NCBI GenBank assembly: GCA_963842885.1
Contig: CAWJIE010000005.1
Location: 160,001-224,000 of the forward strand
Reading direction: 5' to 3'
DNA: 64,000 nucleotides
Origin: an uncultured Nitrososphaerota archaeon
GTDB lineage: Archaea; Thermoproteota; Nitrososphaeria; Conexivisphaerales; DTJL01
The position numbers and the translations under genes are program-made. Of the stretch, positions 32,093-37,672 are shown one piece after another. Every line of letters starts with the position of its first letter. Position 1 is the first letter of the stretch. Under the pieces are notes generated by a model. The model was not told where the DNA came from. It saw only the letters and a program-made list of their open reading frames with translations, and did not search any database.

Positions 32093-32745
32093 AACGGAGG
32101 GGCCTTCCGAAAGGATCCGCCTCCTGCTCAACCCTGAGCTGGCCTCCAGGCAGAGGCCCTGGGACATCTCCATCCAGCTCCTCCTCGAGGACTTCATCCT
32201 GTATCTCAGGAAGCAGCCCGTCCTCGACATGAGGCTGGGCGGCCTCGCCCTTCTGACGTCCTCCATAATCTACAAGCTCAAGGTGGAGCGCCTGTTCTAC
32301 GACGAAAAACGCTCTCTACAGGAAGAAGCCGTCCGACCTGCAGGAGCCCGTCGAAGCACTCTCCATGCCCTTCAGGCTGCAGACGCCTGTGAGCGACATA
32401 GACGACCTCGTGGCCGCCTTGGAGTCCCTCATGAAGGAGATCTCGAAGAGTCCCTCCTCGCCCGTCGAAGAAGGGGTCTTCCAGCCCGGCCTCGAGGCGC
32501 GGGTCGTGGAGCAGGACACCATCGCCATGATGCTTAGGACGTACTCCGACGAGCTCCTAGCGGGGCTCAGCAGGAAGGAACCCACGGGCTTCGGCGACCT
32601 AATCAAAGGGATGGAGCCCATAGAGGTCGCCAGGGTGTTCATCGTGCTGCTCTTCCTTGCCCATTCAGGAAGGATCATCCTCCTTCAGGAGGAGGACGCT
32701 GAGGACTTCAGCGTGCTGGGGGTAGGAGAGGCCATTGCCCGATGA
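32085..32745 (+). CDS. scpA: Segregation and condensation protein A, kleisin (frameshift near 32313; no canonical start)
   Basis: PWDISIQLLLEDF...DMRLGGLALLTSSIIYKLK N-domain and FIVLLFLAHSGRIIL.Q C-domain; lies between smc and scpB. Confidence 0.85.
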
Positions 32746-33265
32746 GCAGGTCGAGGCGCTCATTGAGGCTGCCTTGTACGCGGCCGGCAAGCCTCTGACC
32801 GTTGATGAGCTCTGCAGGGCGGCGGGCACCACTTCCAGGAGGAAGGCACTGGACGCGGTGCGCCGCATCTCGGCAAAGGTGAACTCCAACTTCAAGGCCA
32901 TCGAAATCACGCAGGTCGGCGAGAGCAGGTACGTCCTCCAGCTGCGAAAGGAGTTCAGCCCGGTCGCGAAGAAGTTCGCGACACAGCAATTGCTAACCCG
33001 TTCCGTCCTCAAGACCCTGACGATGATCGCCTACTTCCAGCCTGTGAGCGGGAGCAAGCTATCGACTAGGAAGGGCTCGCAGGTCTACGAACACCTGAGG
33101 ATTCTGGAGTCGATGGGGTTCATCTCGTCGACTCTGGAGGGGAAGAACCACCTCTACCGGACGACGCCGTTCTTCTCAGACTACTTTGGGCTGCCGTCGG
33201 ACCCAACTGCCATGAAGCACAAACTCGATTCCCTCTTCGAGCCAGCCACATCCGGCAAGCCTTAA
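32735..33265 (+). CDS. scpB: SMC-Scp complex subunit ScpB
   Basis: IEAALYAAGKPL, LKTLTMIAYFQPV, YRTTPFFSDYFGL. Confidence 0.93.
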   Translation: MPDEQVEALIEAALYAAGKPLTVDELCRAAGTTSRRKALDAVRRISAKVNSNFKAIEITQVGESRYVLQLRKEFSPVAKKFATQQLLTRSVLKTLTMIAYFQPVSGSKLSTRKGSQVYEHLRILESMGFISSTLEGKNHLYRTTPFFSDYFGLPSDPTAMKHKLDSLFEPATSGKP

Positions 33266-33310
33266 ATGTGCGTCGAATGACCCCTAGGAAACTGAAAGGG
33301 GAAGCTCTGT

Positions 33311-33697
33311 TTGCAGAAGCCAATGGAGAACCTCAGGAAGAGGAAGCTCACGGGCGGCCGGCGCGTGCCATCTAGGGGACGTAGAGGCTACGAGAAGGAC
33401 GGGTACTCGAAGGAGACCGTGCTGGGCGCCAAGAAGCTCTCCACCAGGCGCCTCAGGGGAGGGTCGTCCAAGGTCACGGCCGTCCGAATGGACATGGCCA
33501 ACGTCATGGACCCGGCGACTCACACCGCCAAGAAGGTCAAGATATCAAGGGTCCTCAGCAACGCTGCCAACAGGGACTACGAAAGGCGAGGCGTCATGAC
33601 GAAGGGCGCCGTTATCGAGACCGAGGCTGGGAAGGCCAGAGTGACCTCGAGGCCGTCTCAGGATGGTGTCGTCAACGCCGTTCTCATCCAAAAATAG
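33311..33697 (+). CDS. rps8e: 30S ribosomal protein S8e
   Basis: RKLTGG, RLRGG, TKGAVIETEAGKARVTSRPSQDGVVNA. Confidence 0.97.
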   Translation: MQKPMENLRKRKLTGGRRVPSRGRRGYEKDGYSKETVLGAKKLSTRRLRGGSSKVTAVRMDMANVMDPATHTAKKVKISRVLSNAANRDYERRGVMTKGAVIETEAGKARVTSRPSQDGVVNAVLIQK

Positions 33698-33728
33698 AAA
33701 TAGCACCCGTCACAAGATGGGCTAGCCA

Positions 33729-34024
33729 ATGAAGGACTACGGCAAGCAGAGTCTTCTGGCTGGACTACTTCGACTCAGCGCTGAGCAGGGAATCCGGAAG
33801 GAGGGTGAGCCTCCCCCTGGCCACGAGGAGCCCGACGGTGGAGGAGCTGGCAGCGGCGGCAAGGATCCTCGGCTACGAGCCGCACGTCGAGAAGGCACGG
33901 CATCCCGCCAGGCCCACCAAGCCCTCCGGCTACATCCAGGTGGAGAAGAAGGACGAGCAAGAAGGAGGCGCTGCTCGCCCTTGCCAAGGCCTTGGCCGAA
34001 GGCAGGGCCCAGCAGAAACGCTGA
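33729..34024 (+). CDS. srp19: Signal recognition particle protein SRP19 (two apparent +1 frameshifts, ~33750 and ~33952)
   Basis: Reconstructed MKDYGK.VFWLDYFDSALSRESGRRVSLPLATRSPTVEEL...HPARP...GYIQVEKK.SKKEALLALA. Confidence 0.85.
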
Positions 34025-34074
34025 CCTGACCGAGGGCAAGCTTAATACGGCGCACGCCCGCACCTTCGTCCGTT

Positions 34075-34299
34075 TTGCAGGAGATTGGGACCATCATTCG
34101 CAGGGCTCGCAGCGGCATGGTCATCGTCAGGCTGGCTAAGGAGCCCCACGAGGGACAGGTCCTGTTCGATTCCAAAGGGCGCTCGGTCGGCCGGGTTACC
34201 GAAATCTTCGGACCGGTGAAGGGCGCGTACGCTTCCCTCCTGCCACACACGGACAGGATCGAAGGTCTGGTGGGGGAGAAGGTGTTCTCCAGGAATTGA
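34075..34299 (+). CDS. gar1: H/ACA RNP protein Gar1
   Basis: FDSKGRSVGRVTEIFGPV..AY; conserved position upstream of tfb. Confidence 0.88.
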   Translation: MQEIGTIIRRARSGMVIVRLAKEPHEGQVLFDSKGRSVGRVTEIFGPVKGAYASLLPHTDRIEGLVGEKVFSRN

Positions 34300-35480
34300 A
34301 GCCGAGGTTCGAAAAGGACTCCGAGTCGCAGCCTTCGAAGTGCCCCCAGTGCAACTCGCCCCTCATAGGCGACCGTGCGGCCGGCGAAGTCGTGTGCCCG
34401 ACCTGCGGCTACGTCCTACTTGACGAGGTCGAGTTCGAAGGGCCGGAATGGAAGGCCGTAGACCCAGAGGACAAGCTGAAGAAGAGCCGGGTCGGGGCGC
34501 CGCTGACCTACACACTTCACGACTTCGGGCTGACGACGACCATCGACGGTAGCGGCGTCGATTCACACGGCAACAGGATCACGGGGGACGAAAGGGCCAA
34601 GATGGAGCGGATGAAGACCTGGCAGTTCAGGCTGCGCACCATCGACAGCAAGGAGAGGAGCATGTCCAACGTCCTCCAGAAGATCCATGAGATATCGGTG
34701 GGCCTGAACCTCCCAGGGAACGTCTCGGAGACGGCCGCCTACATTTTCAGGCAGTACTCCAAACCCAACTTCTGCCGACGCTGTAAGGAGGAGGTGGAGC
34801 CCGCGGAGGTCCCCGTCTGCCTGGACTGCGGAATAGGGATAGTCAGGAAGTGCCCCCAGTGCGGCGTGAGGGGTTCGTCGGACGAACGGTACTGCAGGTA
34901 CTGCGGGACGTCGGTGAAGAGCAGCTGCGTCAAGTGCGGAAGGGAGTATCCCTCCGAGCCCTTCTGCCCACGTTGCGGCACGCCCCTTCACAGCAGGTCT
35001 CGGGGGAAGCAGGTGGCGGGGGTGGCGTCGGCGGCCATATACTTGGCCTGCAGGAAGTGCGAGGTGAACAGGTCGCTGGCGGAGGTGGCGGAGAGGTCGT
35101 ACCTCGACAAGAAGGTGGTGGCGAAGTACTACCGGCAGATGGTCAAGGAGATGGAGATGAGCAGCGTCCCCATGGCCTCCATCCAGAAGCACATCTCCAA
35201 GCTATTCAACAACCTCAACTCCACGACCAAGATGCCCGAGAAGGTCGAGCGCCTGGCGATCAGCATAGCCACGAAGGCCTCCGGTGCGTCGATGAGCAGC
35301 GGCAGGTCCCCTGCAGGGCTGGCGGCGGCCTTCCTCTACGTCTCGGCGAACCTCCTCAACGAGCACCTCCCCCAGAGGGACGTGGCGGAGGCGGCCGGGA
35401 TAACCGAAGTGACGATCAGGAAGCGCTGCAAGGAGCTCTTCGAGAACTTCAACATCTCGGTCAAGGTCCACGCAGCATAG
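34296..35480 (+). CDS. tfb: Transcription initiation factor IIB with inserted multi-zinc-ribbon domain
   Basis: B-ribbon CPQC/CPTC, GPEWKA B-reader, HDFGLTT, two cyclin repeats (AAIYLACR, GRSPAGLAAA, GITEVTIRKR); extra six-CxxC block at aa ~157-232. Confidence 0.92.
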   Translation: MKPRFEKDSESQPSKCPQCNSPLIGDRAAGEVVCPTCGYVLLDEVEFEGPEWKAVDPEDKLKKSRVGAPLTYTLHDFGLTTTIDGSGVDSHGNRITGDERAKMERMKTWQFRLRTIDSKERSMSNVLQKIHEISVGLNLPGNVSETAAYIFRQYSKPNFCRRCKEEVEPAEVPVCLDCGIGIVRKCPQCGVRGSSDERYCRYCGTSVKSSCVKCGREYPSEPFCPRCGTPLHSRSRGKQVAGVASAAIYLACRKCEVNRSLAEVAERSYLDKKVVAKYYRQMVKEMEMSSVPMASIQKHISKLFNNLNSTTKMPEKVERLAISIATKASGASMSSGRSPAGLAAAFLYVSANLLNEHLPQRDVAEAAGITEVTIRKRCKELFENFNISVKVHAA

Positions 35481-35560
35481 GCTATGGTCATATTCAGAAA
35501 GAGCTTTTAGGAGGGAAAACGCTCAGAGACTTCGTTACAACCAACCGGAGGGATTGTGCC

Positions 35561-35944
35561 TTGCAAGAAGCAGATGAAGACCTAATCAGCAAAGTGTATC
35601 GTCTCGTCATAGAGAACGGCGAATCTGGGATCCTGCAGAGCGAGCTCTGGAAGGTGCTCGGTCTGACCAGCAGGGACGGCTCGAGGATAGCTTCCAGGCT
35701 TGAGAAGAGGCGTCTCATCAAGAGGGAGAAGGTCCTTGAGAGGGGAAGGTGGACGTACAAGCTCCTCCCCCTGGTCATCCCCATCGACACGAGCAGCATC
35801 GAGGAGGCTCCATGCATCCGGTGCCCTGACGAGGAGAGATGCTTCGTGGACGGAGAGGTGAGCCCCCTCACATGCCTGAAGATCGAGAACTGGTACAACC
35901 TGGAGTACCAGGTGAGACACGGCGATGCGCCCGCTTCAAGCTAA
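35561..35944 (+). CDS. TFE beta / RPC34(C39)-like winged-helix Fe-S protein
   Basis: GILQSELWKVLGLTSRDGSR wHTH and PCIRCPDEERC...SPLTC..I..W Cys cluster; TTG start with GGAGG; follows gar1-tfb. Confidence 0.85.
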   Translation: MQEADEDLISKVYRLVIENGESGILQSELWKVLGLTSRDGSRIASRLEKRRLIKREKVLERGRWTYKLLPLVIPIDTSSIEEAPCIRCPDEERCFVDGEVSPLTCLKIENWYNLEYQVRHGDAPASS

Positions 35945-36521
35945 GAGGGACCTCTACAGGCGCAAGGCCAGGGAAGAGGGGTACCGAAGCAGGGCGGCAT
36001 ACAAGCTCATTCAGCTCGACGAGAAGTTCGGCCTCATGGAGGAGGGTGACACTGTGCTGGACATAGGATGCGCCCCGGGCGGCTGGCTGCAGGCGGAGTC
36101 GGAGCGCGTCGGCCGTGACGGTCGGGTCGTGGGGGTCGACATCAACCCGGTCGAGCCTCCGTCGGGAAACGTGGAGACAATGGTGCTGGATATCACGAGC
36201 CCAGCGGCCGCCGAGGAGCTCAGCGCCAAGCTGCCCGAGGGGGCCGACGCCGTCTTTTCGGACCTGTCGCCAACGATGATGGGGGTATGGGAGGTGGACA
36301 GCGGGAAGCAAATCGACATGACCAGGGCGGCGTACGACATCGCCTGCAAAGTGCTGAAGAAGGGGAAGAACGCCGTGTTCAAGATCTTCGAAGGCGAATT
36401 CACCGAGGAGTTCGTCAGGTATGCCAAGCCCAGGTTCGAGAAGACGGACCTGGCGAAGCCCGAGGCGAGCAGGAAGGCGAGCAGCGAGCTCTATTTCGTC
36501 TGCCTGGGCTTCAAGGGCTGA
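35925..36521 (+). CDS. rlmE: 23S rRNA Um2552 methyltransferase RlmE/FtsJ
   Basis: YRSRAAYKL, DIGCAPGGWLQ, SDLSP, KPEASR..SSELY. Confidence 0.95.
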   Translation: MRPLQAKRDLYRRKAREEGYRSRAAYKLIQLDEKFGLMEEGDTVLDIGCAPGGWLQAESERVGRDGRVVGVDINPVEPPSGNVETMVLDITSPAAAEELSAKLPEGADAVFSDLSPTMMGVWEVDSGKQIDMTRAAYDIACKVLKKGKNAVFKIFEGEFTEEFVRYAKPRFEKTDLAKPEASRKASSELYFVCLGFKG

Positions 36522-37672
36522 TCGGGGCCGAGGGCCGAAAGGACGTCCTTCACTGACGCGTCCGTCTTGACGCCCTGGCTGTCGACGCTGGACCTGGCGG
36601 AGCGGAAACCCATCGAGGCGAGGCGCTCGACGAGGTCGGTAGGGCTGATGCTGGCGACCCCCAGCTTGTCGGTGAAGAACGGGATCTTGTAGTAGAAGGG
36701 AGGGAAGCCCAGCTCCTCCTTGGCCCGGGTGAAGAGGGCGAGGTATCGCTTCATCCCGTTCGAAGCCGCGAGCTCGGCCAGGGAATCGAGGAAGGCGCTG
36801 GCGTGGAGGTCTCCGGTCCAGAGGGGACCGGCGGCCTTGAGCTTCCCTCCGCAGAGAGGGCAGGTCTCCTTCGTGGAAGGCGAAGACTCCCTGTGGCCGC
36901 ACTTGAAGCAGTGGAGGAGATGGCCGATCTCTGCAAGCGATTCGTTGGCCTTGGAAGGCGATATCTCCACACGGCAGTATGCCCTCGCGTAGTGCTGGTC
37001 CGAGTGGCAAAGCAGGGGCTCGACCACCATGTCGTAGACAAGGGCCCTGCGGGCGACGAAGCCCAGGAGGATCCTCAGCATGGACTCTCGGCCGTAGTCC
37101 GTGCGAAGTGCCAGGGCCCCGTACTTTCTGTAGGCCACGTCGGGGTAGAGCCCGCTGAGCACTGCAGTGTCGGTGGCCGTTACAGCCAGGAGCCCCCCGT
37201 CGGCGAGGGCCCTGAGCGCGGACTCCACGAATGGCGCAGGCGTGCCGAACGGGTCGATGTCGATGATGTTGGGTCTCACGTCGGGGGATGACTGCTGGGC
37301 GAGGAAAAGGTTGGCGTCGAGAGTCGTGAACCTCACCTTCCCTTCGCAGCCGTTCAACTGGGCTGCCAGGGACGCGGCCTGGATGGCCATGGGATTCAGG
37401 TCGTTCGCCCGCACGACGGAGACTCCAGGGCACTCGGTGGCGACGCGGAGGGACCTCCCTCCCACCCCGGAGAGGGCGTCGGCGAGGACAGAGGGCGAGG
37501 GGGCCTTCTTGGCGAAGCCCTCGAAGGCGAGGACGGAGACGTCCCTGACCGCCTTTCCTCTTGGATTGAAGAACGCCGGGAAGAGCTCAGGAGGGCCCTT
37601 CCCGAGGCTCTGCTTAGGCACCAGGAGCGTGGTGCGCCCTTCCTTGTGGCGGACGAACCCGTCCAGGCTCAA
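36491..37672 (-). CDS. trm1: tRNA (guanine26-N2)-dimethyltransferase
   Basis: FFNP, DALSGVG.R.LR, NDLNP, DIDPFGTP, TATD, zinc ribbon, GPLWTG.LH. Confidence 0.93.
   Translation of the reverse strand: MSLDGFVRHKEGRTTLLVPKQSLGKGPPELFPAFFNPRGKAVRDVSVLAFEGFAKKAPSPSVLADALSGVGGRSLRVATECPGVSVVRANDLNPMAIQAASLAAQLNGCEGKVRFTTLDANLFLAQQSSPDVRPNIIDIDPFGTPAPFVESALRALADGGLLAVTATDTAVLSGLYPDVAYRKYGALALRTDYGRESMLRILLGFVARRALVYDMVVEPLLCHSDQHYARAYCRVEISPSKANESLAEIGHLLHCFKCGHRESSPSTKETCPLCGGKLKAAGPLWTGDLHASAFLDSLAELAASNGMKRYLALFTRAKEELGFPPFYYKIPFFTDKLGVASISPTDLVERLASMGFRSARSSVDSQGVKTDASVKDVLSALGPDQPLKPRQTK

Follow-up and report, generated by a model that had tools for sequence, protein, structure and literature searches.

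A triple zinc-ribbon insertion within cyclin repeat 1 of a gar1-linked archaeal TFB

Introduction

In a 64,000-nucleotide stretch of DNA from an uncultured Nitrososphaerota archaeon (assembly GCA_963842885.1, contig CAWJIE010000005.1, positions 160,001 to 224,000; the whole stretch is referred to as the window), a gene for the basal initiation factor TFB carries a run of paired cysteines inside its first cyclin repeat. The locus raises the question of whether this cysteine-rich segment is a genuine part of the protein and, if it is, what a zinc-ribbon module might do at such a place in an initiation factor. A sequence-only reading of the window had described the segment as an inserted zinc-ribbon module, had assigned the gene to a gar1-tfb-TFEbeta locus and had proposed a specialised TFB. 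Here we examine these claims by profile searches, alignment, comparison of genomes and structure prediction.

Results

Alignment of the protein to its nearest insert-less relatives revealed one clean insertion between ..AAYIFRQYSKPNF (..YSKPNF) and SRGKQVAG.., built of three zinc-ribbon units of the form CxxC-x9-11-CxxC (Table 1). All six cysteine pairs listed in the sequence-only reading (CRRC, CLDC, CPQC, CRYC, CVKC and CPRC) were found, and the extra module described there inside cyclin repeat 1 proved to be real, starting 9 nt further right and ending 6 nt further on than first placed. The resemblance to double-zinc-ribbon (DZR) repeats was likewise borne out by a profile search with TFIIB and DZR models, both of which matched above their cut-offs. 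The whole TFB matched DZR (PF12773) with an E value of 2e-12 and a best stretch at residues 186-228. The 76-residue stretch originally delimited (34764-34991), searched alone, matched DZR (E 1.3e-14; 54.5 bits, cut-off 27.3), Zn_Ribbon_1 (E 1.1e-10; 41.4 bits, cut-off 25) and DZR_2 (E 2.9e-07; 30.6 bits, cut-off 27). The insertion is of the DZR type and is predicted to add about three Cys4 metal sites to the factor, its six regularly spaced CxxC knuckles having the appearance of structural Zn(Cys)4 sites.

In an alignment of 122 TFBs, which has eight insert-bearing rows and includes two of the four sister-genus orthologues, the segment from K156 to G237 comprises 5 residues in 114 sequences and 80 in the eight that bear the insert. 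The insert itself measures 75 residues in every one of the eight, retains all 12 cysteines with only synonymous changes between TGC and TGT, and is net positive in charge (11-14 K+R against 7-10 D+E). A second, shorter length difference lies between the cyclin repeats, where the segment 305-317 has 11 residues in the same eight TFBs and 7 in the other 114; this linker insertion, STTK, may be compensatory or co-adapted with the large insert.

Apart from these additions, the open reading frame encodes a complete TFB, with an N-terminal zinc ribbon, a B-reader and two cyclin repeats. Pfam matches to PF08271 (TFIIB zinc ribbon; E 6.6e-10, 38.8 bits against a cut-off of 29) and PF00382 (TFIIB repeat; E 2.1e-28, 98.6 bits against a cut-off of 23.6) confirmed the earlier statement that the rest of the protein is intact, and the TFIIB repeat match falls into three stretches because the insert splits cyclin repeat 1. 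Across the 122 TFBs, C19, C34 and C37 of the N-terminal ribbon are invariant and C16 nearly so; W52, W109 and R114 of the B-reader are invariant, as are E371, T373, R375 and R377 in the helix-turn-helix of repeat 2, with T370 and V372 nearly so. The roles of these B-reader and helix-turn-helix residues we take to be those of TFBs in general, drawing in part on published work. Foldseek returned TFIIB/TFB chains as the best structural matches (7nvu_M, E 1.3e-11; 1d3u_B, E 1.5e-09). The protein ends 10 residues past repeat 2 and has no C-terminal extension. The NCBIfam TFIIB subfamily model NF001658 gave 278 bits in two stretches, under its curated cut-off of 384 bits, because the paralogue class is divergent and the insert is present.

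An AlphaFold2 model of the whole TFB, built from the 122-row alignment, had a mean predicted local distance difference test score (pLDDT) of 77. It placed helices at residues 118-136 and 141-155 in the first part of cyclin repeat 1, and over residues 161-230 it predicted short strands with block means of 79-89.

The insertion site corresponds to the loop between helices 1 and 2 of cyclin repeat 1, two residues ahead of R236-G237-K238, which is present as RGKQ in all eight insert-bearing sequences. In a phmmer search of PDB sequences, the P. woesei TFB match was interrupted precisely where the insert lies, and the search aligned query residues 236-380 with residues 152-291 of human TFIIB, so that R236-G237-K238 pairs with K152-G153-R154. 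The loop of human TFIIB that contains G153 and R154 contacts BREd DNA, downstream of TATA, and the variant G153Q:R154A is covered in the same report (PMC4529316). In P. furiosus TFB1, a position in cyclin repeat 1 is described as cross-linking to DNA at -16 to -20 (PMC13502027). Taken together, the alignment, the BREd contact and the TFB1 cross-link suggest that the module emerges just N-terminal of a DNA-contact motif; it would leave the protein on the DNA-facing side of repeat 1, with the contact motif retained. The sequence-only reading had credited the RGR/K motif next to the insert with contacts to both TBP and DNA, of which the alignment with human G153/R154 supports the DNA part (PMC4529316).

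The same 394-residue form of the protein was present in all five species genomes of the window's genus, and three more protein clusters from other sources carry the insert (97, 85 and 82% identity). We also inspected contigs from four public runs, labelled freshwater, peat or plain 'metagenome'. In three of the four runs, which belong to different studies, single contigs ran across the two junctions with 31 letters or more to either side; in the fourth, by the same measure, a single contig did so at the left junction only. Neither a joint nor a deletion form of the gene occurred in the contigs of the four runs. A chimeric join, which had been named as a hazard when the module was first described, was thus not borne out.

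We observed the signature of a coding sequence under selection. No indels occurred across 382 aligned codons of the five genus sequences, and many non-Cys positions of the insert were invariant among them. By the Nei-Gojobori method applied to 10 pairs, the ratio of non-synonymous to synonymous change (dN/dS) was 0.114 in the insert (ratio of means; range 0.055-0.214), 0.16 in the insert without its Cys codons and 0.032 (range 0.026-0.037) in the rest of the gene, all three values being approximate since dS is about 1. Variable sites in the insert were distributed over codon positions 1, 2 and 3 as 24, 15 and 52 of 75 each, and its GC content at third codon positions equals that of the remaining gene. 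Collectively, these findings indicate that the inserted domain is genuine, that it is translated and that selection maintains it.

Two forms of processing were considered and rejected. Inteins measure about 130 residues or more; the insert has 75, it ends in ..LHSR (followed by S) without His-Asn, and no Hint family appeared among its 17 Pfam matches at E≤1, in agreement with the earlier statement that intein hallmarks are absent. For a bulge-helix-bulge intron, neither cofolding of the junctions (z -0.83) nor the minimum free energy of the segment (z -0.31) revealed unusual pairing, and an Rfam search of 33000-37000 returned no match. The intron reading fails because the excess of changes at third codon positions and the dN/dS of 0.11 constitute a coding signature.

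To delimit the distribution of the insertion, we searched 401 genomes sampled across the class with the insert and its flanks (116 residues) and found it in five, all of one genus among the 81 sampled. At the same locus it was missing from all four sister-genus genomes (three genera), and the matter of clade conservation, raised with the original description, was thereby settled in its favour (five of five genus genomes, none of four sister-genus loci). An HMMER scan of 1.84 billion representatives of 50%-identity clusters with the same query gave 690 proteins at E≤0.001. Among the best 150 of these 690 matches, only P0004, which belongs to the same clade, spans the full query; the other 149 match in the ribbon part only, none with TFB cyclin sequence. 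The same query, put to a word-based search of 5.8 billion clusters, recovered the same three relatives, and in a protein atlas of clusters with at least 50 members the nearest clusters were ordinary TFIIB families, none with DZR. In the accessible text of the literature on archaeal TFB and on DZR/PF12773, we found neither a TFB with a zinc-ribbon insert nor a DZR nested in a cyclin fold. The earlier remark that no TFB of this architecture had been described accordingly holds for the literature and for the databases searched, outside the clade. The genus comprises soil and peat archaea among the Conexivisphaerales-related Nitrososphaerota, and the arrangement was found nowhere else in the databases searched.

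In a quick IQ-TREE analysis of Nitrososphaerota sequences and this genome's own paralogues, the eight insert-bearing sequences were set apart by one branch (SH-aLRT 97), as sister to the insert-less orthologues of the family (99) and far from the other TFBs of the genome (100). A single gain in the ancestor of the genus is the simplest reading of this pattern. In a search for a donor, the 2.03-Mb genome was probed with the insert by tblastn, which returned generic zinc-ribbon motifs only, with a best match of 29% identity over 92 residues (E 9e-6; C7:11757), and therefore no donor paralogue.

An identical run of 16 nt, encoding K-C-P-Q-C, occurs at 34337-34352, in the first knuckle of the N-terminal ribbon, and at 34847-34862, in ribbon 2. 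It may be a coincidence of codon bias or a trace of internal origin; the spacings of the two ribbons are 14 and 10 residues.

The genome holds seven TFB and four TBP genes. Four of the seven TFBs are canonical and nearly identical (86-94% to each other), two are divergent (55-56% identity to the canonical four), and the insert-bearing TFB has 33-36% identity to the other six. Outside the window, three of the TBP genes immediately adjoin TFB paralogues (C3:164197-165728, C3:171424-173253 and C3:512238-513930). Two of these TBP-TFB cassettes look recently duplicated, their TFBs being 91% identical and their TBPs having equal scores. Every genome of the family has at least two TFBs, and for thaumarchaeal genomes counts of 8-11 TFBs have been published (PMC4084955).

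The order S8e, SRP19, gar1, TFB, RPC34/TFEbeta-like and FtsJ/RrmJ is identical in all nine family genomes examined, which makes the insert-bearing gene the positional orthologue of an ordinary TFB of 311-331 residues. The gar1-linked TFB paralogue of Thermoproteota has been named TFB2 and, in the available text of the report, Sulfolobus TFB2 is described as essential, cyclically expressed and active in the cell-division phase; it binds at the promoters of division genes as well as at its own gar1-tfb2 promoter, and its degradation proceeds through the cyclin fold, TFB1 serving housekeeping genes (bioRxiv 10.64898/2026.09.06.749720). By synteny, which is the sole basis of the assignment, the insert-bearing gene is a TFB2-type, gar1-linked paralogue. 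The proposal of a specialised TFB is plausible on this account, given seven TFBs, four TBPs and a TFB2-type locus; the insert, to which the sequence-only reading had tied it, is not the reason.

The neighbours agree with this assignment and with the gar1-tfb-TFEbeta locus claimed at the outset: Gar1 stands above its Pfam cut-off, the TFEbeta-like gene is recognised by a weak match, and the order recurs in nine of nine loci. Gar1 scored 32 bits (E 1.1e-07; cut-off 29.3) in Pfam, and NCBIfam Gar1 models reached E values down to 9e-12, yet under their cut-off. The stop codon of gar1 overlaps the start of TFB (TTGA). Upstream of gar1, the element AAGCTTAATAC is probably the promoter of a putative leaderless gar1-tfb operon, and a related element, AAGnTTAAT(T)AC / AAACTTATTTAC, stands at the equivalent place in all nine aligned loci. 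The sequence AAGCTTAATA has only three occurrences in the genome, too few to define a regulon. We further observed a (C/T)GCA(C/A)C motif 11 nt past the AAGCTTAATAC element in all five genus loci (34038-34075 in the window); its surroundings are variable in two of them, and the four sister-genus loci show no clear counterpart.

For the RPC34/TFEbeta-like gene, the Pfam matches to Rpc34 (E 3.6e-4) and MarR_2 (E 3.7e-4) were both under cut-off. The family has been described, with co-transcription of TFB and RPC34 and with Gar1 nearby, for Crenarchaeota and Thaumarchaeota (PMC2770514). Its winged helix is almost invariant throughout the family of genomes, and the C-terminal region with four cysteines has genus-specific substitutions, for example LKIENW.NLEYQV versus RLLEDWV..EYRQ. 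A complex prediction of TFB residues 117-292 with this neighbour, run without controls, gave scores of 0.01 and 0.02 against a mark of 0.32, which weigh neither for nor against an interaction.

Further upstream lies SRP19 (33729 to about 34030, + strand), in which this assembly carries two single A bases, at about 33750 and about 33956, that its four congeners lack. Each shifts the frame, the second without restoring it, so that the gene is spread over three frames; either assembly indel errors or a broken SRP19 would fit. The S8e-SRP19-gar1-TFB block is closely preceded, at 32735-33265, by a gene for ScpB (Pfam E 5.4e-30), a subunit for SMC segregation and condensation.

Table 1 Features of the gar1-tfb locus, in window coordinates
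Feature	Position	Strand	Basis
BRE/TATA-like element AAGCTTAATAC (putative promoter)	34038..34048	+	one match in window, ~28 nt upstream of gar1 start codon
gar1 (H/ACA ribonucleoprotein component), 74 residues	34075..34299	+	Pfam Gar1
TFB gene with insertion, gar1-linked paralogue	34296..35480	+	394 residues, TTG start
N-terminal TFIIB-type zinc ribbon, residues 15-54	34338..34457	+	PF08271
Cyclin repeat 1, first part, residues 117-159	34644..34772	+	AlphaFold2 secondary structure; PDB alignment to P. woesei TFB residues 4-44
75-residue insertion, residues 160-234, 12 Cys	34773..34997	+	alignment with insert-less orthologues; Pfam DZR
Ribbon 1, CRRC-x11-CLDC, residues 160-178	34773..34829	+	sequence; Cys kept in 8/8 insert-bearing sequences
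Ribbon 2, CPQC-x10-CRYC, residues 186-203	34851..34904	+	DZR best stretch 186-228; Zn_Ribbon_1 185-206
Ribbon 3, CVKC-x9-CPRC, residues 211-227	34926..34976	+	DZR best stretch 186-228
Cyclin repeat 1, remainder, residues 235-292	34998..35171	+	PDB alignment and AlphaFold2 model
R236-G237-K238, aligned with human TFIIB K152-G153-R154 (BREd-contact loop)	35001..35009	+	PDB phmmer
Cyclin repeat 2 with BRE-reading helix-turn-helix, residues 296-384	35181..35447	+	Pfam TFIIB best stretch 298-383
4-residue linker insertion STTK, residues 309-312, between cyclin repeats	35220..35231	+	122-TFB alignment
RPC34/TFEbeta-like gene, 127 residues, winged helix and CxxC-x5-C-x10-C	35561..35944	+	position kept in 9/9 loci

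Discussion

Our results place three Cys4 zinc-ribbon units, grafted into the helix 1-helix 2 loop of a gar1-linked TFB, next to a motif that aligns with a DNA contact. The most likely account of their action, which we hold to be a little short of an even chance, is that the Cys4 sites bind zinc structurally and that the module sits alongside the DNA, between TATA and the bubble's upstream edge. There it would add a contact to nucleic acid or to the pre-initiation complex on the DNA-facing side, and this contact may shift the stability or promoter preference of the complexes formed by this paralogue relative to those of the six other TFBs. The retained RGK motif, the net positive charge and the strictly conserved length of the insert support such an added contact. 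The neighbourhood is one that other factors are reported to occupy in eukaryotes, the winged helices of TFIIF and of Pol III C34 lying opposite the BREd region (PMC4671959, PMC7111264).

Several observations weigh against this account. The DZR family has no established function, and the contact to DNA or to the pre-initiation complex is suggested by position in an alignment rather than by coordinates or a protein-DNA model. Folded alone, the insert reached a pLDDT of 83.7, but only two of five AlphaFold2 models were confident. Foldseek of the insert against the PDB gave no match at E≤0.001, the best being the zinc modules of PolD DP2 (E 0.019). Of 48,161 chains compared by VIA-align, 35 reached a Z of at least 2 and none a Z of at least 5, the top match being 6htj_B (Z 3.2; root-mean-square deviation 3.8 across 44 residues). 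These structural matches are generic zinc ribbons and have no bearing on the novelty of the fold. Non-synonymous change is three to four times faster in the insert than in the rest of the gene, which fits a looser role, and the five sequences behind the dN/dS values come from one genus and are not independent.

The ribbons may instead bind protein and serve as a docking platform, which we consider unlikely, although it is the best placed of the alternatives. The partner could be a surface of RNA polymerase such as its protrusion or wall, any of the four TBPs, TFE-alpha/beta, the degradation machinery or some regulator. Within the transcription apparatus, contacts between proteins are often made through zinc ribbons, and the weak VIA-align matches include RPB9 and the Brf1 ribbon. 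The position of the TFIIF and C34 winged helices opposite BREd would suit docking as well (PMC4671959, PMC7111264), and the RPC34/TFEbeta-like product of the adjoining gene has been proposed to pair with the neighbouring TFB (PMC2770514); the linker insertion between the repeats, moreover, co-occurs with the insert. The winged helix of that neighbour is, however, nearly identical and free of indels in genera with and without the insert.

A metal or redox switch, raised in the sequence-only reading, is a distinctly doubtful alternative, drawn here by analogy with Brf2. Here, oxidation or loss of zinc would unfold the module and perturb the adjacent DNA-contact loop, so that initiation by the insert-bearing TFB would track redox or metal status, as with Brf2, through unrelated sensing elements. 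Twelve conserved thiols stand beside the loop, and the contigs come from runs labelled freshwater, peat or plain 'metagenome', peat being a redox-variable habitat. A redox-sensing factor of the TFIIB family has a precedent in C361 of Brf2 (PMC4671959). However, in cysteine spacing and profile matches the insert is like any ordinary structural zinc ribbon, Brf2 uses a single exposed cysteine at the TBP/DNA interface and no zinc site, and no sensor role is ascribed to the N-terminal ribbon, also Cys4, that every TFB has.

It is just as improbable, in our estimate, that the insert is a tolerated passenger, a cassette in a surface loop that is kept folded to spare the factor and has no new activity. 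Constraint three to four times weaker than on the remaining protein, a narrow spread (1 of 81 genera sampled) and the abundance of generic CxxC-x10-CxxC ribbons in the genome would fit a passenger. The insert nevertheless has exactly 75 residues in all eight sequences, without indels, despite a dS of about 1; many of its non-Cys positions are invariant among the five genus sequences, and none of the five species has lost it. The host loop is functionally critical, moreover, and has a fixed length in all 114 insert-less relatives.

Slimmer still is the chance that the insert combines grip and sensing, the metal-loaded ribbons running along the DNA between TATA and the bubble as a built-in clamp whose hold oxidation or demetallation would release. 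By analogy, the ribbons would then take the place of the eukaryotic TFIIF or C34 winged helices. If this were true, a TFB2-type and possibly cell-cycle factor would be gated directly by redox or metal state, and among basal archaeal initiation factors it would be the first to have an environmental switch of its own.

That the insert is absent from the mature protein, whether through chimeric assembly, protein splicing as an intein or excision from the mRNA as an intron, is barely credible: its length is divisible by three and its first residue is Cys, but five independent species assemblies and three protein clusters share it, and contigs from three studies cross the junctions free of any joint.

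Comparison with known systems sets the insert-bearing TFB in context. Like the canonical archaeal TFB represented by the P. woesei core (1AIS, 1D3U), the protein has a zinc ribbon, a B-reader with invariant Trp, two cyclin repeats and a helix-turn-helix in repeat 2, and it matches 1d3u_B at E 3.4e-28 in phmmer and with a Foldseek TM score of 0.63 on the target; in contrast to that TFB, it carries the triple zinc-ribbon insert and the four-residue linker insertion. With Sulfolobus TFB2 it shares a gar1-tfb operon beside an RPC34/TFEbeta-like gene, in a genome with more canonical-looking TFBs, whereas the available text on TFB2 mentions no zinc-ribbon insert and the likeness is one of synteny alone (bioRxiv 10.64898/2026.09.06.749720).

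Human Brf2 is likewise a member of the TFIIB family in which a lineage-specific addition at the DNA/TBP interface tunes complex formation; Brf2 recognises a BREd-like site through a minor-groove element, and its one exposed cysteine, C361, lies in a 'molecular pin' C-terminal to the repeats (PMC4671959). In the factor described here, by contrast, 12 cysteines lie in CxxC pairs inside repeat 1, and the added parts of the two proteins are unrelated in sequence. We considered a Brf2-type factor and rejected it, as there is no C-terminal extension and the extra cysteines all lie in CxxC pairs within repeat 1. The protein belongs to the TFB family and its insert to the DZR family; it contains no intein and is not a Brf2-type factor.

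DZR modules are described in two other regulators. Haloarchaeal CdrL combines a ribbon-helix-helix domain with DZR, the latter accompanying a DNA-binding scaffold (PMC7439475), and in the Bacillus phage extracytoplasmic-function sigma factor Gp17, DZR replaces sigma-2 (bioRxiv 10.1101/2019.12.11.873521). The module is terminal or domain-replacing in these proteins and nested in a cyclin fold here, and the available text gives no established DZR function for either. The winged helices of RAP30/Tfg2 in TFIIF and of C34 are reported to lie at or opposite BREd and to stabilise promoter DNA above the cleft (PMC7111264, PMC4671959). They differ from the insert in fold, belong to separate polypeptides and are eukaryotic, so that the likeness would be a functional analogy.

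In summary, a universal initiation factor has clearly been remodelled on a critical face, and the change is fixed in the clade. The reach of the finding is limited for now, because the insert belongs to one uncultured genus and its function is inferred. TFB/TFIIB ranks among the most conserved transcription proteins of archaea and eukaryotes; with a conserved factor, a loop of fixed length and a module placed at a DNA contact, the genus therefore presents a natural experiment on rebuilding the face of the pre-initiation complex. The gar1-linked paralogue, tied to the cell cycle in Sulfolobus, offers a concrete handle on how TFB paralogues come to behave differently at promoters, since isogenic versions of the factor, one bearing the insert and one lacking it, can readily be made.

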